Notes: generated by a model not told the origin, from the letters alone. A DNA stretch of 15,952 nt from a virus (IMGVR_UViG_2874920711_000013:1-15952), one strand, 5' to 3'; numbered from the stretch's first letter, positions 1,904 to 14,181 are shown. Numbers and translations are program-made.

Positions 1904-3165
1904 TCAGGCTGCCTTATGCTGCCGCGCATAAATGTACGGCGCGACATACCCCTCGCGGCACACATCCAGATAATCCGACCACCACTGCATCATGGCCTTT
2001 CTGGCCTCCAGATGCTCTGCTTTATGCACATATGCCGCCCGCACGCTGTTGCGCTCCTGGTGGCTCATTTGCCGCTCCACCGTATCGCGTGACCACAGGT
2101 CCGACTCCACCAGGGCGCTACAGGCCATTGCCCTGAGTCCATGCCCACAGACTTCAGTTTTCGTATCATACCCATCAGACGCAGCGCCCGGTTGGTGGTG
2201 TTTTCACTCATTGGCTTGTACGGATTATGGTCGCCGGGAAACACCAGATCCAGATGGCCGGAAAGCTCCTGTATCTGTTTCAGAATGGCAATCGCCTGGC
2301 GGGAGAGCGGCACGATATGCGGGGTACGCATTTTTGCGCCACGCCCCGAAAACCGTACTTTATCAATTGCCTCGCGGGTGGCGGGAATGGTCCAGATTTT
2401 GTGCCTGAAATCGATCTCGCTCCAGCGGGCGAAACGCAGCTCGCTGGAACGGATAAACAGATGCAGCGTCAGCCCCACCGCCAGCCGGGTTAACTCCCGG
2501 CCCTGCCGGTAGTCGCCAATGCGGCCAAGCAGTTCAGGCAATCGCTCCAGCGGTAAAGCGGGATAGTGATTCTTTACGGGTGAGGCGACAACGCCATCCA
2601 GATGCTGCGCCGGATTGCTTGCGGTCAGTCCCTGCTGAACGGCATAGCGCATGATGTTGCTGAGTTGCTGCCGGGTTCGGGACGCGACTTCCAGGAAGCC
2701 TTTATCCTCAATAATCAGCAGTAAAGCCGTGAAATCCTGCGTTTTAAGCGTGGCAACGGGCAGATGACCAATCGCCGGGAAGATATGGTTTTCCATACTG
2801 GCGAGAATACGGGCGGCATACTCAGCCGACCATTTTTTGTTGGTTTTGTGCCAGGCCAGCGCCACCGCCTTAAAGCACTTTTCAGGGGAGCAGGCTGCTT
2901 TCTCTGCCATGCGCTGCTGCGCCGGGTTGATATTCTGCGCCAGTAACTTACGGATACCGTCGCGCTGCTGCCTGGCTTCTGCCAGTGAGGCCAGCGGATA
3001 TGCGCCAAGACTGACTCTGGATTCTTTTCCGTTGAAACGATATTTGCGATACCAGATGCGTGAACCGCTCGGATTGACGAGCAGATACAGACCGTGAGAG
3101 CCGGAGAGTTTTACCGGACGGGAAGAGGGTTTTAACTTGCGGATTTTAGAATCGTTTAAAGACAT
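1904..3165 (-). pseudogene. P4-type tyrosine integrase (DUF4102 N-terminus plus phage-integrase catalytic domain), interrupted by one frameshift
   Basis: N-terminus MSLNDSKIRKLKP...GLYLLVNPSGSRIWYRKYRF is typical of P4-like integrases; ATG at 3165 with GGAG upstream. The catalytic C-terminus (HGLRAMACSALVES...SHQERNSVRAAYVHKAEHLEARK) is in another frame (1904..2182). The frames are reconciled by one extra base in the C-run at 2171-2173. The gene sits beside the 3' side of tRNA-Asn in the same orientation. Confidence 0.85.
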
Positions 3166-3326
3166 TTGAGGGTCACTCCAGAATCGAACCAAACTGCCCC
3201 CAGATCTGACCACCAAATTATCCCGATGCGGAGAGAAAACTAGATACGCACCGGGAAGGATTTTCACGCTAACTTACTGAATCGTAAACAAATAGAAACG
3301 TACAGATAAGCATGAAAACTTGAATT

Positions 3327-3402
3327 TGGCTCCTCTGACTGGACTCGAACCAGTGACATACGGATTAACAGTCCGCCGTTCTACCGACTGAACTACAGAG
3401 GA
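3327..3402 (-). tRNA. asnT: tRNA-Asn (anticodon GUU)
   Basis: 76-nt sequence on the minus strand, TCCTCTGTAGTTCAGTCGGTAGAACGGCGGACTGTTAATCCGTATGTCACTGGTTCGAGTCCAGTCAGAGGAGCCA, matching the E. coli Asn tRNA with encoded CCA. The asnT name comes from its position next to mtfA. Confidence 0.95.
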
Positions 3403-3502: not shown

Positions 3503-4300
3503 TTAATGAACATTCGTCGCCGAAAACGAGTCTGTATCATTAGCGTGATGCAGTCTCTGCAAAGGATCTTGTTGATAAAATTGGCAGAAACGTTGCCACA
3601 ATGAAGGGAAACGAGGAGCAAAAAGTTCTGGGGCGCTAAAGAAATATTCAGAAAGTACGGCAAAACATTCAGCAGGATCGCTGGCAGCATAAGCATCAAT
3701 GCTCGCCGCATTCTCGCCAACTAATTCGATTTCTTCCTGAATGTTGTTCATTGCAGCATGAAGATCGTGTTCCCAGCCAGCAACCTCACGCAACGGAATA
3801 AAGGGAACTCCGCTGGCGCGATCGCCGTTACGGGTGTCCAGCTTATGAGCGACTTCATGAATAATCAGGTTAAAACCAGAAGCATCAAAAGAATCTTGTA
3901 TATCCAACCAGTTCAAAACGATAGGCCCTTGCTGCCAGCTCTGACCTGACTGAACAATACGTTGGTTATGCACCAGACCGATATCGTCTTCCCATTCATC
4001 ATCGACCACAAATGGCGCAGGATAAATTAAGACTTCATGAAAACCATCCAGCCATTCCAGTCCTAACTCCAGAACGGGTAGGCAAAATAGAAGTGCTATC
4101 CGGCAGCTTCTTAATGAATCCAGTTCAAAGCTCTGTAAAGGAACAAGCCGCTTTTGCTGTAAAAAACGTTCGGCAAGAGTGACTAATTTGCTTTGTTCCT
4201 GTTCCGTCAGACACGTTAAAAGGGGGAACGATAGTGCTTCCTGCCAGGGAAGGGCAGTTTGATGTGCTGATTCTTGTACTTTCCAGGGCCACTTAATCAT
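3503..4300 (-). CDS. mtfA: MtfA (Mlc titration factor A; zinc-dependent peptidase family), 265 aa
   Basis: Protein begins [23 protein letters not shown] and contains the HEVAH zinc-binding motif. It lies between the Asn and Ser tRNA genes, as mtfA does in E. coli K-12. Confidence 0.9.
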
Positions 4301-4393
4301 CGTTTTGCTCGCAAACTCGTCACTTGAACAAAATTGCACGGACAGGGACTGTTAAAATGCCAAATTTCTTGGCATCATGGCAACCATCTGAAC

Positions 4394-4483
4394 GGAGAGA
4401 TGCCGGAGCGGCTGAACGGACCGGTCTCGAAAACCGGAGTGGGGGCAACTCCACCGGGGGTTCAAATCCCCCTCTCTCCGCCA
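4394..4483 (+). tRNA. serU: tRNA-Ser (anticodon CGA), class II tRNA with long variable arm
   Basis: 90-nt sequence GGAGAGATGCCGGAGCGGCTGAACGGACCGGTCTCGAAAACCGG...GGTTCAAATCCCCCTCTCTCCGCCA; anticodon loop CU-CGA-AA. Confidence 0.95.
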
Positions 4484-4528
4484 AAATTCAATCACTTATA
4501 CATCATTAAGTCAGTGACAAAAATCACA

Positions 4529-4559
4529 CTTGGAATTACTTGGAATATTTTCTTGGAAT
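4529..4559. repeat. three direct CTTGGAAT repeats between the serU 3' end and the end of int (candidate integrase arm-type sites)
   Basis: CTTGGAAT at 4529-4536, 4539-4546 and 4552-4559. The last two are a 13-bp tandem repeat inside the final int codons (ENIPRKYSK). Confidence 0.45.
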
Positions 4560-5561
4560 ATTTTCAGGTAACGGGACATCAAGTGTCGGTGAAACTTTAA
4601 CCTTCCTGTCATAGATTAGCACTTGCCCCTCGGTTTTGTGACCAGAGAAAAGTTGCTTATCCCGACTGCTTCCTTCATAGTCTGAAATTCCTTTCGCCTT
4701 CAGATCATGAAAGGTGAAGTCGGTTAAAATACCTGAAATTTTGCCTGCGCGATTTCTTGCTTCTACCCACATTTCGTTAAAGCCTTTGTACATATATCGG
4801 TTGCCGTATTGATTGCTGATTACATAGGCGGATGTTGGTAACTGTTTTGCTTTTTCGATCGCCGCCTGTAATCGTGGACTCCATGCTTTTATCTGTTTTT
4901 TTCCTGTTTTCCCTTGCTGGATAAAGATCCCGTCGTTTCCAATCTGCTCCCATTTCAGCGATAACACATCGGAAACCCTCGCTGCACACAGATAGGCAAT
5001 TTCCATTGCGATAAAAACAGGAAGAGGTGCAACGCTTAATACTGCCTGGTATTCTTTGTCGGTTACATATCGTTCGCGGTTTTTGGCCTTGAATTTACTT
5101 ACACCTGCACATGGGTTAGCCTTCACGTACCCTCGCTCATACCCCCAACTGTAAACGCGGGACATACTGCTTTTTTCATGGTTGGCTTGCGTTTTACTCT
5201 GTTCCCCTCTCTTGTCCATGTATCGACGGATGTGTTCTGGTTTTATGGAATCTGCCGGCACCTTACCGAATACGGCAAGCAACTTTTTTTGATGTTGCAG
5301 ATAATCTTTTTGTGTTCTTGGACTGAGGTCACTGTAATAGGCGCTGGCGAGGAATTTTTCCCACAAGCGACCGAATGTCATTGCACGATCGCGATTATTT
5401 ACAGTTTCCTCATACTTTTTCCATAAAGCAGCTAAACCATCCTTGATGGCGGTTAGTGTTACAGATTCTCTGGATGTTGGTTTCCATACATAACTATATT
5501 TATTTGGGTATACATTTGGAGGTAATTTTTCGTGTTCAGGATTTTTCCTTCGTCTTCCCAT
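4536..5561 (-). CDS. int: prophage integrase, lambda-Int family tyrosine recombinase, 341 aa
   Basis: N-terminus MGRRRKNPEHEKLPPNVY resembles the lambda Int arm-binding domain. Catalytic region carries R (AARVSDV), K (QGKTGKK), H (FTFHDLK), H (SGHKTEG) and Y (VLIYDRK). The gene converges on the serU 3' end and is coupled to the upstream xis (TGATG overlap at 5559-5563). Confidence 0.9.
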   Translation of the reverse strand: MGRRRKNPEHEKLPPNVYPNKYSYVWKPTSRESVTLTAIKDGLAALWKKYEETVNNRDRAMTFGRLWEKFLASAYYSDLSPRTQKDYLQHQKKLLAVFGKVPADSIKPEHIRRYMDKRGEQSKTQANHEKSSMSRVYSWGYERGYVKANPCAGVSKFKAKNRERYVTDKEYQAVLSVAPLPVFIAMEIAYLCAARVSDVLSLKWEQIGNDGIFIQQGKTGKKQIKAWSPRLQAAIEKAKQLPTSAYVISNQYGNRYMYKGFNEMWVEARNRAGKISGILTDFTFHDLKAKGISDYEGSSRDKQLFSGHKTEGQVLIYDRKVKVSPTLDVPLPENIPRKYSK

Positions 5562-5730
5562 CAGATCGCACCAAAATTCGGCTCTACCTCGCGTGGTGGT
5601 AAAGTTTTATTGCAGGTAAATAGATCCCGGCTGACAATCGGTTTGCCACTACGATTGGTATAGAACGGAAGCCCGTTTTCCATTAACCATTTTCGCTGGT
5701 GGCTTGCATATTTGCAGCCCGTTAATATTA
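5561..5730 (-). pseudogene. xis: excisionase (Xis-like winged-helix protein) interrupted by an IS insertion; this is the 3' part, and the first 11 codons lie at 6647..6680
   Basis: Removing the IS (5731..6644) and one TA copy restores a 67-aa ORF MSSLFLTEDELLILTGCKYASHQRKWLMENGLPFYTNRSGKPIVSRDLF..., which fits the excisionase pattern (LTG...W...NG.PF....GKP.V.R). Its stop overlaps the int start. Confidence 0.6.
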
Positions 5731-6644
5731 GGCTGTGTCCCTTAATCATCTGAGCTATAGTAACTGTCTGTTTACACAACATATTGAACTATGGCTCGCT
5801 ACGACCTTCCCGATGAGGCATGGACCATCATCAAGCCCCTGTTACCTCCTGAACCCGCCACACCACGGGCCGGACGCCCATGGGCTGAGCACCGTAAAAT
5901 CATCAATGGCATGTTCTGGGTGTTATGTTCCGGTGCACCATGGCGCGATTTACCCGAACGATATGGGTCATGGAAAACTGTTTATAACCGCTTTAACCGA
6001 TGGTCAAAGTCAGGCGTGATTAATATTATTTTCAACAGGTTGCTTTCGCTACTTGATGCAAACGGCTTTATTGACTGGTCTGCCACCGCGCTGGATGGCA
6101 GTAATATCCGGGCGCTGAAATGTGCCGCCGGTGCTCAAAAAAACATCCCGATATCGACGGAGATAATGGGCTGGGTCGCTCTCGCGGCGGTTTTGGCACC
6201 AAAATCCATCTGGCAACAGACGGAAGTGGCCTCCCGTTAAATATCGTGCTAAGCCCGGACAAGCTCATGAAAGCCAGTTCGCGCAACGACTTCTGGACGG
6301 GATTGGCGTTCAGCGTCAGAACGGCAGCATGAAACGCCGTGGACATGCGGTACTGGCTGATAAAGCGTATTCAGGGCGCGCATTGCGCAACGAGCTGAAA
6401 AATAACGGTATAAAGGCAGTAATCCCCGAAAGTCAAATGAGAAAATGGCATCGGATGGACGTGCACAGCTTGATCGTGATGCGTACTGCAATCGTAATGT
6501 CGTTGAACGGTGCTTTGGGCGGCTGAAAGAATATCGCCGCATCGCCACGCGTTACGACAAAACGGCGAGAAATTACCTGGCGATGGTGAAACTGGGCTGC
6601 ATCCGACTCTTTTATCAACGCTTACGTAATTAAGGGACACAGCC
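5731..6644 (+). mobile_element. IS5-family (IS427-like group) insertion sequence, 914 bp, inserted in xis
   Basis: Perfect 16-bp terminal inverted repeats GGCTGTGTCCCTTAAT (5731-5746; reverse complement at 6629-6644) flanked by a TA direct duplication (5729-5730 and 6645-6646). The transposase begins MARYDLPDEAWTIIKPLLPP. Confidence 0.8.
5791..6633 (+). pseudogene. IS5-family transposase (OrfA/OrfB), reading frame broken at three homopolymer sites
   Basis: Conserved transposase segments lie in four successive frames (5791-6240, 6120-6332, 6329-6526, 6445-6633), including ADKAYSGRALRNELKNNGIKAVIPESQ and ERCFGRLKEYRRIATRYDKTARNYLAMV. Shifts are at the A7 run 6137-6143, CCCGG at 6254-6258 and AAA at 6435-6437; each is -1. 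The A7 site could be a natural programmed frameshift. Confidence 0.75.
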
Positions 6645-6738: not shown

Positions 6739-8010
6739 TTAAAAATCAGCCTGACTCGGGATCAGTTTTTGCCAGATAGCTGAAACGTATTTTGCCTGGT
6801 AACGAGCGTCATCAAGTGCATTATGGCGCTCACCTTCGAATGGAATAGCCGTTCTGGCATCGAAGTCTATGGCTTTCCCCAGCTCAACGATTGTGCGTAC
6901 ATCGCGATCGTTGTAGTAACGCCACGGGCAGGGGATCCCCTGCCGTTCGTATGAACGGCGCAAAATCGTGTTGTCGAAGTTGGCTCCATTTCCCCAGACC
7001 TGAACAAAAAATTCACCGGAGTTTTCGTCGATAAATTCCCGCAATTGTAACAGTGCATCATCTAACGGGATTTCATCGGTCATAATGGCAGATTGCGCTT
7101 CGCGTGATTGCTTAAGCCACCATTTAATGGTGTCCCGATCAATGACTCCGCCAGCAGTTTCCAGATCGATAGTCTTACTAAATTCGGGTCCCATATCTCC
7201 GGTTTGCGGATCGAAAAATATTGCACCTATTGAGATGATCGGGGCATCAGGATTTTTTCCCATGGTTTCAAGGTCGATCATTAGATGGTCACACGTCCTG
7301 CTGGTGGATGTGATTTCGTGATGACCATTCACCGTAATTAAGGGATCTGCCGTCTCGCCAGTTTTACTATCGCTGGCGTGGTCCTGAGCGCTGCCAGCAT
7401 TCTCCTTGTGTGGATGTTCAGCGCCTTCCATTTCCTCCGGATCATTTTCCTGAACTTCAACCTGATTCTCTTCATCGAATGTTTTCTGGTATGTTGCGTC
7501 GTCCATCACCGCGCCACAATCAGGGTAGTTGCCGCCACCGCTCTGACCGCAGGCGGTGCAGACTTTTTCCGGTTCCTGTTGCGCTACTGGTTCGGATTGT
7601 TTCGTTTCTGGCTCGTTTTGTAACGCATTTGGGCTGTTTTGTTCCGCTTTTTGGTCGTTCCGTTCCGATTCATGCTGGTTCTGGTTCACAGAATCGCGAG
7701 TCTGGATCCCCTTGACCCATTTCGGATCATTAGGGTCGCTAATCCCCTCAACAAATTCACCACGCGATACAGCAAGTAACTTATCGGCGTCAGGCTGGCT
7801 GATATTGGCTGCCTGCATAATTTTGTTTACTTCGTCAGCGGTGACTTTTACTTGGTTAGCGGAACTCACCTGCGACTGAGCATCCAGCGACTGCGCGTTC
7901 TGGCAATGTTCAGTTGTATCCGGTTCCATTGTTTCAGTTGTTGCCTGTTCACCTGCCATTGCGTCAGATGGTTGTGGTTTTTCTTCTTCTGTTTCACGCT
8001 CAGTAACCAC
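6739..8010 (-). CDS. prophage exonuclease: DnaQ-like DEDDh 3'-5' exonuclease domain after a long acidic low-complexity region; true 5' end uncertain
   Basis: C-terminal domain has the three DEDDh motifs: [21 protein letters not shown] and [14 protein letters not shown]. The listed start is a GTG with a poor ribosome-binding site. Coding-like sequence continues upstream in another frame (8045..8219) across an A5 run at 8038-8042. Confidence 0.75.
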
Positions 8011-8163
8011 CTCGCGGTTAATTTCTTCCAGGATATCTTTTTCCGGCGTATGCCGGGCAGCTGTGAGAGTTTCCTTGCTGGGTTCTCGTGATCAGTTTCT
8101 GTCAAATAGGCGTTGATATACCCCTGAAGGCGTCCCGGGTAGTGATAAAATTCAGGGGTGCGC

Positions 8164-9177
8164 TTAGGATAAGTGCAAAAATAGCGGCGCGGGAATAGTC
8201 CAGAATACCCGGGTTGCACGAAGTGCTGCGGACCATTCTTTGAACGGACTTTCTTTTTTCAGGACTACTTCTTTTGCGCGACGATAAACGCTGCCCGGAA
8301 TTTCATAAATATTAAAATCCATCGGAAGTGTGGCTGCTGCAATCTCCACATCCAGTGTGTCGAGGGTGTGTACTAAATTCGGATTGCGATCGGTTTTGTT
8401 CCCACCGCCAGCATTAGCACCGGAAGCCGTGCGGGTGATGCGTGAAACACGATTTCCTTTCATCCACTCTTTTGTCAGCAGACCCCGATCAGTGTAGTCA
8501 GCGTCCAGGTATGCTTCGAAAAAAGCAGTTATTAGTCCCAGGTCTGAATTACCAGGATTAGGGAAAACTTTGTCAGTGTCACGAACCAGTTTGTGGAGGT
8601 CGCGAATCTCCAGCGAGTCGAGCAGACTGGTTTTATGCGAAATAGCCAGGGCAGTAACAGCCGGTAGTTCTTCAGCCCGTGCAATGTGTAATGCCTGGAG
8701 TTCGTCGCGTGAAACGTGCGTTACTGGTTTTTCGCTGCCGTGTTGAGCAAGCCAACGAATGGGCAGTTCCTGACCGGAGACAGGTAGAAGCATGCTCTCC
8801 TCAATCTCAGTCATGTCTTCGCCGTTGATGTTGGTATTATCAGTGCTGGCTGATTTGTCCTGAACAGAGGGGGAAGGGCCGATAAATGTCATTGTGATGC
8901 CATCTTTCCCGCCTTTTTCATAGCGGTTGCAGAATTCAGTATCAAACACGCCTTCTGGCGGAAGGTCGTCAACAACGGGCAAATTGACGCGGACGGGTTT
9001 TTTAAAGTCGTCTTCATCATAATCGTTGTCATCCATTGCGGTAATGCAGCGGGAGATTGCAACAGATAATTTTTTTGCTGTAGTCCAGTAAAAACCACCT
9101 TTAATTCCTAGGCGTTTTCTTACTTTGACATTTTTTGCTTCGCAATATAGTGCAAATTCTTCTTTATCAGTGCTCAT
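8164..9177 (-). CDS. prophage protein of unknown function, 337 aa; possibly the N-terminal part of a larger exonuclease protein
   Basis: Long ORF with ATG at 9177. It occupies the ydfE-like position after ydfD in a Qin-type gene order. It is in the same frame as the exonuclease ORF. Confidence 0.6.
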
Positions 9178-9462: not shown

Positions 9463-9647
9463 TGTGCACATCCTTTTGGCATCAGACGTAAACGGGCCAG
9501 CATTGAAACAATGCATACTTTATTTAATAACTCCCGTTCGTGTTTTCTTTTGTTAATGGCCTCTTCAGTAAATACAGGATTACTGATAGTGACACCAATT
9601 TCAAAACAACCTTCAGACGTATTAACGTTTGGTAATAACGTTTTCAT
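9459..9647 (-). CDS. dicB: DicB cell-division inhibitor, 62 aa
   Basis: MKTLLPNVNTSEGCFEIGVTISNPVFTEEAINKRKHERELLNKVCIVSMLARLRLMPKGCAQ. GAGGG ribosome-binding site 8 nt upstream of the ATG at 9647. It lies directly downstream of DicF. Confidence 0.85.
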   Translation of the reverse strand: MKTLLPNVNTSEGCFEIGVTISNPVFTEEAINKRKHERELLNKVCIVSMLARLRLMPKGCAQ

Positions 9648-10893: not shown

Positions 10894-11568
10894 ATGAATT
10901 CCCAGACAACAAAAGATATTCCCTGCTTCCGTTCTTATTTGCCTGATGCCCTGCGTTTAAGATTTGAAGATAAACTGACCATCCGGGCCATCGCTCAGCG
11001 TCTGGGTCTCAGTCATTCCACAATACATACGCTTTTTCAGCGATTTCTTGCATCCGGTATCGCATGGCCATTGCCCGATTCAGTTTCATTCGCTCAACTT
11101 GACGCCATCCTTTATGCCAACAGAAAGAAGGAATTAACAGAGCCTCAAATCAGAGAAGGCTCATGGCGAAAAGAACGGCGAACCAGCTATAGCCGTGAAT
11201 TTAAGGCCCGTCTGGCTAAGCAGGCGTTACAGCCTGGGGCTGTTGTTGCCCGGATCGCCAGAGAACACGATATCAATGATAACCTGCTGTTTAAATGGAA
11301 AAGCCAGTACGAGGACGGCTTACTGAGCGATGATGACATACAGGAATGCATGCCTGTCCCGGTGGCACTGACTGATACGCCGGAGCCGACCAGACCAGTT
11401 ACAAATCCCTTCTGGCGTAACAAGCATGATGAGCGCCCTGAGGGGGCTCCCGGAAACGTCCCACGGTGCGAGCTGCATCTTAAATCAGGTGTGGTAAAAC
11501 TGTTTGACCCTCTCACTCCGGAACTGTTACGGGCGCTAATCCGCGAAATGAAAGGGGGTATCCGATGA
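10894..11568 (+). CDS. IS66-family accessory protein OrfA (helix-turn-helix), 224 aa
   Basis: C-terminal half (RRTSYSREFKARLAKQALQPGAVVARIAREHDINDNLLFKWKSQYEDG) matches the IS66/IS3-type OrfA pattern. ATGA overlap with the next gene at 11565-11568. Confidence 0.7.
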   Translation: MNSQTTKDIPCFRSYLPDALRLRFEDKLTIRAIAQRLGLSHSTIHTLFQRFLASGIAWPLPDSVSFAQLDAILYANRKKELTEPQIREGSWRKERRTSYSREFKARLAKQALQPGAVVARIAREHDINDNLLFKWKSQYEDGLLSDDDIQECMPVPVALTDTPEPTRPVTNPFWRNKHDERPEGAPGNVPRCELHLKSGVVKLFDPLTPELLRALIREMKGGIR

Positions 11569-11912
11569 TAACGCTGCCGACCGGTACCAGAATCTGGATC
11601 ATCGCTGGCATCACAGATATGCGTTGTGGCTTCAATGGCCTGGCTTCGAAGGTGCAGAACACGCTGAAAGATGACCCGTTCTCCGGGCATATCTTCGTCT
11701 TCCGGGGCCGCAGTGGCAAAATGGTGAAAATACTGTGGGCCGATCGTGACGGGTTATGCCTGTTCGCCAAACGCCTGGAACGGGGCCGCTTCGTCTGGCC
11801 GGTGACCCGGGAAGGGAAAGTGCACCTGACGCCAGCTCAGTTATCCATGCTACTGGAGGGGATCGCGTGGCAACATCCCAAACGGACAGAACGGCCTGGC
11901 ATCCGGATATAA
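11565..11912 (+). CDS. IS66-family TnpB (Orf2), 115 aa
   Basis: MITLPTGTRIWIIAGITDMRCGFNGLASKVQ...KMVKILWADRDGLCLFAKRLERGRFVWP is the characteristic IS66 Orf2 sequence. Confidence 0.85.
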   Translation: MITLPTGTRIWIIAGITDMRCGFNGLASKVQNTLKDDPFSGHIFVFRGRSGKMVKILWADRDGLCLFAKRLERGRFVWPVTREGKVHLTPAQLSMLLEGIAWQHPKRTERPGIRI

Positions 11913-11931
11913 CCCGTGATAAAACAAGGGA

Positions 11932-13487
11932 ATGAACAATGAACTCCCCGATGATATTGAGCTGCTTAAAGCCATGTTGCGTAAGCAACAGAGTCGGCTT
12001 CGACAGTATGCCTGTCAGGTCGCGGGCTATGAGCAGGAAATTGAACGGCTGAAAGCGCAACTCGACAGGTTGCGTCGTATGTTGTTCGGCCAGAGTTCAG
12101 AGAAAAAGCGTCATAAGCTTGAAAATCAGATCCGACAGGCAGAAAAACGACTGTCGGAACTGGAAAACCGGCTGAACACAGCCAGAAATCTTCTGGAAGA
12201 TGCATCGTCAGTCACAGATTCACCTGACACCAGTCCCCCGTCAGAAAACCCGATCGCCAGTAAGCCTGAATCCCCGGGAGACACATCGCCTTCTGCCTGC
12301 TGAAACCAGTTGCCCGGCCTGTGGAGGTGTTCTGAAAGAAATGGGGAAACAATCTCAGAGCAACTGGATATCATTAATACCGCCTTTAAAGTTATCGAAA
12401 CCATACGTCCCAAACTGGCCTGTAGCCGGTGTGATGTCATCGTTCAGGCACCACTTCCCCTAAACCGATCGAACGCGGTTATGCCAGTGCAGGGTTACTT
12501 GCACGGATCCTGGTCAGCAAATATATGGAACATATCCCTTTATATCGCCAGTCAGAAATATACGCGCGACAGGGCGTGGAGCTGAGCCGTAATACCATGG
12601 TGCGCTGGGTATCAGAAATGGCAGACAAACTCCGTCCTCTGTATATAGCGCTGAATGACTATGTTCTGGAGGCAGGAAAGGTGCACGCAGATGACACTCC
12701 GGTGAAAGTACTGGCCCCGGGGAACGGAAAGACGAAAACGGGTCGTCTGTGGGTATACGTCAGGGATGATCGTAATGCGGGTTCATCCCTGCCGGCAGCC
12801 GTCTGGTTCGCGTATTCGGCAGATCGCAAAGGAGAACATCCGCAGCTCCACCTGGCAAAGTATCAGGGCGTACTGCAGGCTGATGCCTATGCAGGTTATA
12901 ACGTACTGTACGAAACGGGCCGGGTGAAGGAAGCCGGGTGCCTGGCCCACGCCCGCCGAAAAATCCATGACGAGGATGTGCGCCGTCCGACAGAAATGAC
13001 TCAGGAAGCGCTCAGACGGATAGCAGAGTTATACGACATAGAAGCGGAGATACGTGGCAGTCCGGCAGAGGAACGGCTTGCAGTCAGAAAAGCCAGAAGC
13101 GTCCAGTTGATGCAGTCGTTGTACGACTGGATACAGTTGCAGAGGAAAACGCTGTCGAAATATGCGGAGATGGCGAAGGCGTTCGACTATATCCTGAATC
13201 ACTGGAATGCGCTGAACGAGTTCTGTCGTGACGGCTGGGTGGAAATAGACAACAACATCGGTGAAAACGCGTTACGATCGGTGGCGGTTGGAAGAAAAAA
13301 TTATCTCTTTTTCGGCTCAGACAAGGGAGGAGAAAGTGCGGCGATCATCTACAGTCTGCTGGTCACCTGCAAACAGAACGAAGTGGAGCCGGAGGACTGG
13401 TTGCGCGAAGTGATCGAGAAGCTCAATGACTGGCCGTCGAACCAAGTGCATGAACTGCTGCCCTGGAACTTCTCGTCTGTAAAATAA
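11932..13487 (+). pseudogene. IS66-family transposase TnpC, broken by four single-base frameshifts
   Basis: N-terminal coiled coil (11932-12303), CxxC segment LPAETSCPACGG (frame of 12200-12463), SEQLDII...[16 protein letters not shown] (frame of 12310-12585) and the DDE domain LYRQSEIY...HADDTPV...[10 protein letters not shown] (12525-13487) lie in different frames. Shift sites are GGG 12276-12278, CC/TT near 12289-12292, GGGG 12343-12346 and CCCC 12457-12460. Confidence 0.85.
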
Positions 13488-13639: not shown

Positions 13640-13690
13640 CATATAATGTACTTTGCGTTCATTGTTGTAAAGTACTTTTAGTACATTTTG
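13640..13690 (-). promoter_or_regulatory. candidate leftward early promoter (pL-like) with flanking operator half-sites
   Basis: On the minus strand: -35 TTTACA (13666-13671), 17-bp spacer, -10 CATTAT (13643-13648). The heptamer ATGTACT or its complement occurs at 13647-13653 and 13680-13686, with palindromic AGTACT at 13671-13676. Confidence 0.4.
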
Positions 13691-13761
13691 TGTGTAAAAA
13701 AATGAGATGGGATAAAGTGAAGCACAAACCCGGAGGAAGGCGCTACCGGATTTATGCTGGT

Positions 13762-14181
13762 TTAAGAGGCTTTTTGTTTTTTCTTTCGTGCTAACTCTTC
13801 GTAAATTGCATTGTACTTCTGTTTTTTCTCTTCAAGAGTTTTTAAAAGTTCATCTGTCTCACTGTCAGGGAGCTCGTCCAGAAGGTCAATGATGATTTTT
13901 TGTCTTGGATTTAACTCCTGATAGAAACGTACCTGTCCACTTTCTTCTGTATCCTCTCCCAAAAGATAGGTTGGTGTTGTTCCTATTAGTGTTGCTAATT
14001 CCCTTAATTTCTCCCGGCGAGGAATTGTTTCGCCATTAAACCATTTGCTAACCGCTTTTGGTGTTAATTTCATTCGACGGGCAATTTCTGCCTGCCTTCC
14101 ATGTTGTTCATAACCAGCGTTTTCACAGGCTAGCGCAAGCCTACTGGCGAACTCTTTACGCGCTTTATCTTCATGAACCAT
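13762..14181 (-). CDS. dicA: prophage repressor, DicA/RacR-like (N-terminal XRE-type helix-turn-helix, no peptidase domain), 139 aa
   Basis: Helix-turn-helix region FASRLALACENAGYEQHGRQAEIARRMKLTPKAVSKWFNGETIP with a charged C-terminal tail. It is divergent from the Cro-like gene and, once IS66 is removed, lies directly upstream of ydfA-ydfB-ydfC-dicF-dicB. The dicA name is by synteny only. Confidence 0.75.
   Translation of the reverse strand: MVHEDKARKEFASRLALACENAGYEQHGRQAEIARRMKLTPKAVSKWFNGETIPRREKLRELATLIGTTPTYLLGEDTEESGQVRFYQELNPRQKIIIDLLDELPDSETDELLKTLEEKKQKYNAIYEELARKKKQKAS

Follow-up and report, generated by a model that had tools for sequence, protein, structure and literature searches.

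Candidate arm-type integrase sites spanning the 3' end of int in the serU-integrating prophage family of Escherichia coli

In phage lambda, the N-terminal domain of Int binds arm-type sites, IHF bends the DNA, and Int bridges the arm and core sites (PMC4880445). We read the positions of the lambda sites from the sequence of NC_001416 (27480-27900). P1 (acaggtcactaat) is in direct orientation and P2 (catagtgactg) is inverted; the core follows, and then P'1 to P'3, all direct and spaced by 10 and 12 bp. The stop codon of lambda int lies inside P'3. The RefSeq lambda feature "int 4" (27814-27854) was not relied on, as it shows no coincidence with matches to the P' consensus. In the IntS/TorI system of KplE1 (CPS-53), the TorI sites are located on the int-proximal arm of attL and overlap int regulatory DNA (PMC2951348).

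The prophage at serU in E. coli O157 is Sp14 (PMC8190617). Asadulghani et al. judged the Sp14 integrase to be intact (PMC2669165). After mitomycin C treatment of O157 Sakai, PCR spanning the attP junction detected circularised Sp14 at a low level (PMC2669165), which shows the system to be functional in at least one host. No description of the att anatomy of Sp14 was found in the published work consulted.

The DNA analysed here, referred to as the window, is a 15,952-bp stretch of viral DNA (IMGVR_UViG_2874920711_000013:1-15952). The repeats described below belong to a family of lambdoid prophages that integrate at serU and of which Sp14 of E. coli O157 is a member. Sp14 in E. coli O157:H7 Sakai is likewise integrated at serU, and O157 genomes carry the int-attL module seen in the window (PMC8190617); the prophage in the window is a mosaic, IS-disrupted relative of Sp14 and not Sp14 itself. 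The attachment region is of an ordinary kind, its map being new for a prophage family that is very common in E. coli, and it contains the following features.

4394..4483, plus strand: tRNA-Ser(CGA), serU (ARAGORN), the attB target rebuilt in attL, with a bacterial 5' part and a phage-derived 3' part
4421..4437, no strand: core/crossover region, the anticodon stem-loop CCGGT-CTCGAAA-ACCGG, with presumed exact cleavage positions
4486..4498, plus strand: candidate IHF site H', ATTCAATCACTTA, a 12/13 match to WATCAANNNNTTR, between the core and the P' sites
4529..4536, plus strand: P'1, candidate arm-type site CTTGGAAT, core-proximal, non-coding except for its last base, which is common to the int stop codon
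4539..4548 (8-mer 4539-4546), plus strand: P'2, candidate arm-type site CTTGGAATAT, corresponding to Y-S-K, the final int codons on the minus strand
4552..4561 (8-mer 4552-4559), plus strand: P'3, distal candidate arm-type site CTTGGAATAT, corresponding to N-I-P(R) of int on the minus strand
4539..4564, plus strand: two perfect 13-bp tandem units (CTTGGAATATTTT), slippage-prone (Tandem Repeats Finder)
4536..5561, minus strand: int, encoding a lambda-family heterobivalent tyrosine integrase of 341 aa (Pfam, HMMER, Foldseek)
5561..5731, minus strand: xis-like gene (DUF4224; Pfam), overlapping the int start, with its 5' end replaced by an IS insertion

The earlier note had described a triple direct repeat that overlaps the stop and last codons of the integrase gene, and the repeat was recovered at exactly the same positions. 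The sequence at 4525-4568 reads ...cacaCTTGGAATtaCTTGGAATattttCTTGGAATattttcagg... and contains all three copies of CTTGGAAT found in the 15,952-bp window when both strands were scanned; the copies start at 4529, 4539 and 4552 and are all on the plus strand. The number expected in the window is 0.63, and three or more copies occurred anywhere in 5 of 200 shuffled sequences. Tandem Repeats Finder called a perfect 13-bp unit (CTTGGAATATTTT), repeated 2.1 times, at 4539-4565, and also a 10-bp register at 4528-4546. Among control 150-bp windows from related loci, only 2 of 2889 had at least three exact copies of a 7-mer at 9-14 bp spacing. The array is located 46-76 bp beyond tRNA-Ser(CGA)/serU, with a distance of 10 bp between P'1 and P'2 and of 13 bp between P'2 and P'3. 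The int open reading frame (341 aa, minus strand) ends in ...PLPENIPRKYSK*. The site at 4539 spans the codons for K and S and two bases of that for Y, and the site at 4552 spans the codons for I and P and two bases of that for R. The stop codon is the complement of 4536-4538, between P'2 and P'1, and has one base in common with the site at 4529. We propose that the three CTTGGAAT repeats are very probably the P'1, P'2 and P'3 arm-type sites of a lambda-like attachment site.

The target gene can be assigned to serU because the empty site in K-12 shows the synteny mtfA, tRNA-Ser, yodB. Alignment of the window with K-12 is identical through the tRNA, and the sequences are unrelated beyond the CCA end. 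Within the tRNA the two differ at 4441 and 4452, paired positions of the variable arm at which the window has G..C for A..T, a compensatory change. With the phage-derived G..C pair the fold of the tRNA is maintained, and ARAGORN recognises the gene as intact. In E. coli FDAARGOS_536, a second copy of the 3' part of the tRNA is found 46.7 kb away, at attR. This copy runs from GGTCTCGAAAACC in the anticodon stem-loop to CCA and carries the K-12 bases A..T; the part of the tRNA carried by attP therefore extends from the anticodon stem-loop as far as the 3' end. The match of attR to the tRNA begins at about 4420 and phage-type bases are present from 4441, which places strand exchange between about 4420 and 4441. 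The crossover would most simply lie in the 7-nt anticodon loop (4426-4432), a candidate overlap region flanked by the dyad CCGGT/ACCGG, and the stem arms of the dyad are candidate core-type sites. In the lambda convention, the side contained in the window is attL (B-O-P').

In strain War, the P arm breaks directly after GGTCTCGAAA, consistent with a crossover in the anticodon loop. Directly beyond GGTCTCGAAA, the P arm of this strain (locus L092) continues into a copy of the sequence usually located ahead of the P arm, and the junction suggests an aberrant Int-mediated event inside the anticodon loop. The serU site often holds tandem elements. In FDAARGOS_536 (L004, 1-3011), a second island follows attR, and the H' position of that island matches the IHF consensus perfectly; FORC064 (L105, 860-1180) contains a natural P-O-P' junction between two tandem prophages. 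The window itself has a second integrative element at a neighbouring asn tRNA gene, where a 400-aa P4-type integrase (2065-3402; Arm-DNA-bind_3, Phage_int_M and Phage_integrase) adjoins tRNA-Asn(GTT) at 3327-3402; related records at the asn tRNA locus contain yersiniabactin-island genes.

The attR of the window prophage lies outside the window, and the P arm was read from other genomes with the same int-attL module. The attL-int segment of FDAARGOS_536 has one mismatch to the window in 1403 nt (99.9% identity). Its 49.9-kb locus contains five copies of CTTGGAAT, with about two expected: three are at attL, and two are inside the prophage next to attR. The proximal P-arm copy is inverted and lies 47-54 bp from the attR anticodon position, and the distal copy is direct, oriented as the P' sites are, at 112-119 bp. 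Thus, the 8-mer that the earlier note had asked to be sought near the other prophage end is present there, in a near-identical module, as two copies 47-119 bp from the attR core. The P arm was found in 1018 E. coli genomes, compared with 1090 that have int. In diverged P arms with 85-88% identity, from O145 and O170:H18 strains, both 8-mers and their flanks are invariant. Homology in these arms starts about 10 bp outside the distal site and continues to the core, and the distal site therefore marks the outer edge of the functional arm. At the P-O-P' junction of FORC064, all four to five arm sites are contiguous. A nucleotide search of phage collections gave no intact attP for the exact module of the window; the two matches are prophage extracts with host flanks.

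Candidate IHF sites were found on both sides of the core. The exact IHF consensus WATCAANNNNTTR occurs four times in the 50-kb FDAARGOS_536 locus. Two of these matches are in the P arm, one in the stretch that separates its two motifs and the other in the stretch from the proximal motif to the core, and a third exact match, AATCAATCACTTA, is at the H' position of the neighbouring tandem element. In relatives of the window, the H' candidate keeps the consensus positions and varies at the N positions (taagtgNttgaat). H1, H2 and H' are candidate IHF sites by consensus match. In the FDAARGOS_536 P arm (L004, 3085-3160), an extended direct repeat of 11 bp, TTGATTTTTCG, is common to both IHF consensus sites and might be, or overlap, a binding site of the Xis-like protein. 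The resulting att map, with its core, five arm sites and three IHF candidates, tells which ~270 bp to clone for integration vectors and excision assays.

The integrase itself resembles lambda Int over its full length. Pfam identified PF00589 Phage_integrase (E = 3e-11), Phage_int_M and SAM-like domains, and the region of H308 and Y317 is conserved. HMMER aligned the protein with full-length lambda Int from residue 1 of both (MGRRR..LPPNxY; E = 8e-13), and a profile of 22 sequences against lambda Int gave E = 1.7e-16, again from residue 1. A Foldseek search with the AlphaFold model returned full-length lambda Int chains as top matches, with alignments of 336-367 columns. The Pfam family of the lambda arm-binding domain, Arm-DNA-bind_1, scored 13 bits, below its cutoff of 22. 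The AlphaFold model has two strands followed by a helix at residues 22-58, with a pLDDT of ~50-60 for the N-terminal ~60 residues; given this low confidence, the model adds little beyond the sequence alignment. On the basis of the alignments, the N-terminal domain appears homologous to the arm-binding residues 1-64 of lambda Int. Across the family, the class of motif goes with the sequence of the N-terminal strands of Int. Identity in the N-terminal domain predicted motif sharing with an AUC of 0.78, compared with 0.72 for the rest of the protein, a modest signal that is confounded by phylogeny. The rapidly changing motifs provide a natural data set for co-evolution of arm-site specificity and the Int N-terminal domain.

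Upstream of int, the DUF4224 gene has homologues annotated as excisionase in ST64B and mEp390. Identity of the protein encoded in the window with the native one (67 aa) begins only at about residue 12, and colinearity with FDAARGOS_536 breaks at position 5731. Relative to FDAARGOS_536, an insertion of ~913 bp at 5732-6644, with an IS4/5-type transposase open reading frame (5791-6240, DUF4096), takes the place of the region upstream of the xis-like gene (5561-5782, minus strand) and of its first ~11 codons. The directionality factor is probably disabled in this window. Because the xis-like gene is disrupted by the IS and the prophage is degraded, the arm sites in the window may be unused relics. 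The prophage is an IS-ridden mosaic. An exonuclease VIII-type gene (region 6739-9177) appears to be split into an open reading frame with an Rv2179c-like domain (6739-8010) and another with an Exonuc_VIII domain (8164-9177), and an IS66-family element (HTH_Tnp_1, DDE_Tnp_IS66) is present at 10894-13487. When the whole window was searched against complete RefSeq E. coli genomes, none contained at least 80% of it.

With these components, assembly could proceed as it does for lambda. The small N-terminal domain of Int would bind the three P' sites and the two P-arm sites, and the core, formed by the anticodon stem-loop of tRNA-Ser(CGA), would be bound and cleaved by the C-terminal domains. At H1, H2 and H', bends of the IHF type would fold the arms back, so that one Int protomer could bridge an arm site and a core site. 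Such an intasome would form for integration (attP x attB) and, together with the DUF4224 Xis-like protein, would serve excision (attL x attR). Int binding of the arm sites, the division of the sites between integration and excision, and the involvement of IHF are what we infer for this element.

The suggestion that the repeats mirror the P' arm of lambda is supported by the complete arrangement, as the order and orientations of P1, H1, P2, H2, core, H' and P'1-3 are shared with lambda. Both have five arm sites, three direct ones in P' and a distal direct plus a proximal inverted one in the P arm; in both, IHF consensus sites separate arm sites from the core, and the integrases are homologous over their full length. 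The P' spacing is about one helical turn in both (10 and 13 bp in the serU element, 10 and 12 bp in lambda), and the outermost P' site touches the end of int in both, lambda P'3 overlapping the int stop codon. In the serU element the overlap goes further than in lambda, with two sites fully inside int sense codons. The motif also differs, being CTTGGAATAT in the serU element and (C/A)AGTCACTAT in lambda. The core of the serU element is a tRNA anticodon stem-loop, whereas that of lambda is an intergenic 15-bp core, and the P' sites are therefore ~100-130 bp from the crossover, compared with ~55-85 bp in lambda. The P arm is shorter (~120 bp versus ~150 bp), and the directionality factor is a DUF4224 protein, unlike in lambda. 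The arm and IHF sites of the serU element are candidates defined by sequence.

Closer counterparts, with integrases 48-59% identical to the Int of the window, are found in Salmonella phage ST64B, Citrobacter phage Chris1 and coliphage mEp390. These phages have the same integrase family, tRNA integration and a DUF4224 or excisionase gene upstream of int, and each attP has three to four direct repeats next to int, a tRNA core, and one inverted proximal plus one direct distal copy. Each uses its own motif, TTTTCTCA in ST64B, TATACCAA in Chris1 and ATGGCGAA in mEp390. The P' sites of ST64B and mEp390 are wholly past the stop codon, whereas the first site of Chris1 overlaps the last int codons and the stop. 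No report of an experimental characterisation of the att sites of these three phages was found in the literature searched. KplE1 offers a different parallel, as its arm-type and directionality-factor sites in attL overlap functional parts of the int region (PMC2951348). In both KplE1 and the serU element, recombination sites and gene features therefore constrain each other; in KplE1 the overlap involves the intS promoter, the 5' end and autoregulation, whereas in the serU element it involves the 3' coding end and the stop codon.

The int module was found in 1090 of 5426 complete E. coli genomes, about one in five, among them O157:H7 and further lineages that produce Shiga toxin. No variation in the P' region was seen in six other sequences with 94-100% overall identity (five E. 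coli genomes, plus two prophage records). More distant integrases, at 64-89% identity, all end in NIPxxYSK*. At the DNA level these relatives have AAT ATT CCA, two variable codons, and TAT TCC AAG TAA TTCCAAG, the final copy being TTCCAAG(TGTGA) just past the stop codon or a one-base variant of it. AAT ATT CCA (P'3) is DNA-invariant in 7 of 7 relatives, with neighbouring codons varying, and TAT TCC AAG (P'2) is equally invariant in all seven. The motif codons thus show zero synonymous changes among relatives at 64-89% identity, and the flanking codons and the two-codon spacer vary freely. Two loci (L009 and L010) were counted as family members only, with a 100% match at the protein level and DNA that is 89% identical to the window over 3.8 kb.

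One DNA word is kept in two reading frames (NIP and YSK) and once more outside the open reading frame, which points to a constraint on DNA and not on the peptide. The earlier note had proposed that the last codons (ENIPRKYSK) are constrained by both protein and DNA-site function. The DNA part of this proposal holds up well: a DNA-level constraint on the last int codons is strongly supported by the frozen synonymous sites and by the use of two frames. The protein part does not, and a protein-level constraint on ENIPRKYSK looks weak; the C-terminal tails of Int in the family vary freely in length and sequence, and natural slippage variants have quite different tails. P'2 and P'3 are inside the last nine codons, with the stop codon between P'2 and P'1, so that conservation of NIPxxYSK* would be mainly a shadow of DNA-site conservation. 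The map thereby explains this conserved peptide end.

A wider survey covered 80 loci from other species, with 76 unique int 3' ends. Two to four repeats were present at the int 3' end in 56 of the 76 relatives (74%), and at least three in 23 of 76 (7-mer, 9-14 bp spacing); control windows had at least two repeats in 173 of 2889 cases (6%) and at least three at a frequency of 0.07%. Spacing across the family is nearly always 13 and then 10-11 bp. The motifs are lineage-specific and include ATATTCTAAG, ATATACCAAG, ATATTAGGAA, ATATTATGAA, ATATAGTGAA, ATCTTCGGA and AATGGCGAA, among others. The array extends into the stop or sense codons in 24 of the 56 loci, and the coding copy there matches the non-coding copies of its own genome; TCT appears with ATATTCTAAG and ACC with ATATACCAAG. 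Among relatives, then, either CTTGGAAT or a lineage-specific replacement keeps the position and spacing, which answers the question raised at the outset about conservation of the motif. The family geometry (13 then 10-11 bp, with distal direct and proximal inverted P sites) amounts to a simple rule for annotating arm sites of uncharacterised integrases.

Other explanations of the array have to be weighed against Int arm-type sites. The repeats could be sites for an accessory protein, either the DUF4224 Xis-like directionality factor or a host protein, that controls directionality or int expression. Directionality factors do bind short direct repeats in att arms, KplE1 TorI being an example (PMC2951348), but the motif here is present on both arms, as three copies on one and one inverted plus one direct copy on the other, which is the pattern of lambda Int arm sites, whereas in lambda the Xis sites, also direct repeats, are found on one arm only (PMC4880445). 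The motif also tracks the N-terminal region of Int across the family, and some members use ATAGTGAA, which is close to the lambda arm-site ATAGTGAC in the int sense. We regard an accessory-protein role as very unlikely. Conservation might instead reflect a function of the C-terminal Int peptide (NIPxxYSK), such as that of a trans-acting regulatory tail, or a signal for int transcription or translation, with the DNA repeats as a by-product. The ...KYSK end is indeed common to many integrases at ~60-89% identity, and the tail of lambda Int has a modulatory role that would suit the idea. Against a peptide function, the 8-mer is read in two frames and its third copy is non-coding, synonymous sites are frozen within the motif only, and in many relatives the repeats are wholly past the stop codon, Int ending soon after ...SPTLD. 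A scan of window positions 4300-4800 found no promoter-like or terminator-like signal, which removes the promoter and terminator readings. Conservation for the sake of the peptide or of an expression signal is therefore scarcely credible.

It is just as improbable, bordering on the implausible, that the repeat is a functionless, tolerated 13-bp microduplication at the int end and that the attR copies are coincidental. Positions 4539-4564 do form a perfect 13-bp tandem duplication, and the number of units ranges from 1 to 4 among E. coli genomes, recurring on different flank haplotypes. Yet relatives at 64-89% identity keep three sites spaced by 13 and 10 bp with imperfect units that are unable to slip, and their motif codons are without synonymous change. 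All other copies in 50 kb are less than 120 bp from the attR core, diverged P arms preserve them unchanged, and the same architecture is found with other motifs in 74% of relatives. Slippage has a bearing on the arm-type sites all the same. Because the 13-bp duplication slips, the fact that P'2 and P'3 are perfectly identical is due in part to recent duplication or conversion, and not to selection alone.

Variation in array length was revealed by searching E. coli genomes with the query minus one 13-bp unit, which recovered forms with 1-4 units. The unit is not a multiple of 3 and lies inside the open reading frame, and each step of one unit changes the C-terminus of Int.

FORC064 and EC20017429: two CTTGGAAT sites, Int of 345 aa ending in ...ENIPSNSKCDFCH
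window type: three CTTGGAAT sites, Int of 341 aa ending in ...ENIPRKYSK
O157:H7 EC4115 and related strains: four CTTGGAAT sites, Int of 359 aa
Z1323HEC0355: five CTTGGAAT sites, Int of 358 aa

The 345-aa form thus terminates in ...PSNSKCDFCH and the 341-aa form in ...PRKYSK. The four-site form occurs on two flank haplotypes, and three- and four-site forms are both found within O157:H7; slippage is therefore recurrent. Judged from search identity bands and not from a count, ~93% of genomes would carry the three-site (two-unit) form. PGAP annotates the two-, four- and five-site forms as intact and flags the three-site form as "frameshifted"; the pseudogene it assigns to the common 341-aa int extends to window position 4511, as seen in four RefSeq E. 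coli loci (L004, L005, L006 and L007). Since relatives at 64-89% identity share the three-site, 341-aa arrangement, the flag most likely arises as an artefact from the choice of reference protein. We rejected the reading of int as broken that the PGAP flag implies, the 341-aa end being the conserved state in these relatives. The flag on the common form of the integrase is probably wrong, and the number of genomes with this artefact may be of the order of 1000.

The C-terminal tail of lambda Int modulates the activity of the enzyme and its catalysis. It is conceivable, if unlikely, that the 13-bp unit works as a slippage switch, in which gain or loss of a unit changes both the arm-site number and the Int tail and thereby tunes or locks excision and integration in a heritable but reversible way. 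This coupling of site number to the Int C-terminus is the only part of the locus in which a surprise might be found. The copy-number variants form a natural allelic series for relating arm-site number and Int tail to prophage stability.

Short tandem repeats are also present elsewhere in the window. A 24-bp unit is repeated twice, with an 80% match, at 13644-13691, just 3' of a Cro/HTH_3-like open reading frame (13762-14181, minus strand), and could be operator DNA. Another 13-bp unit is repeated 1.9 times at 9619-9643.
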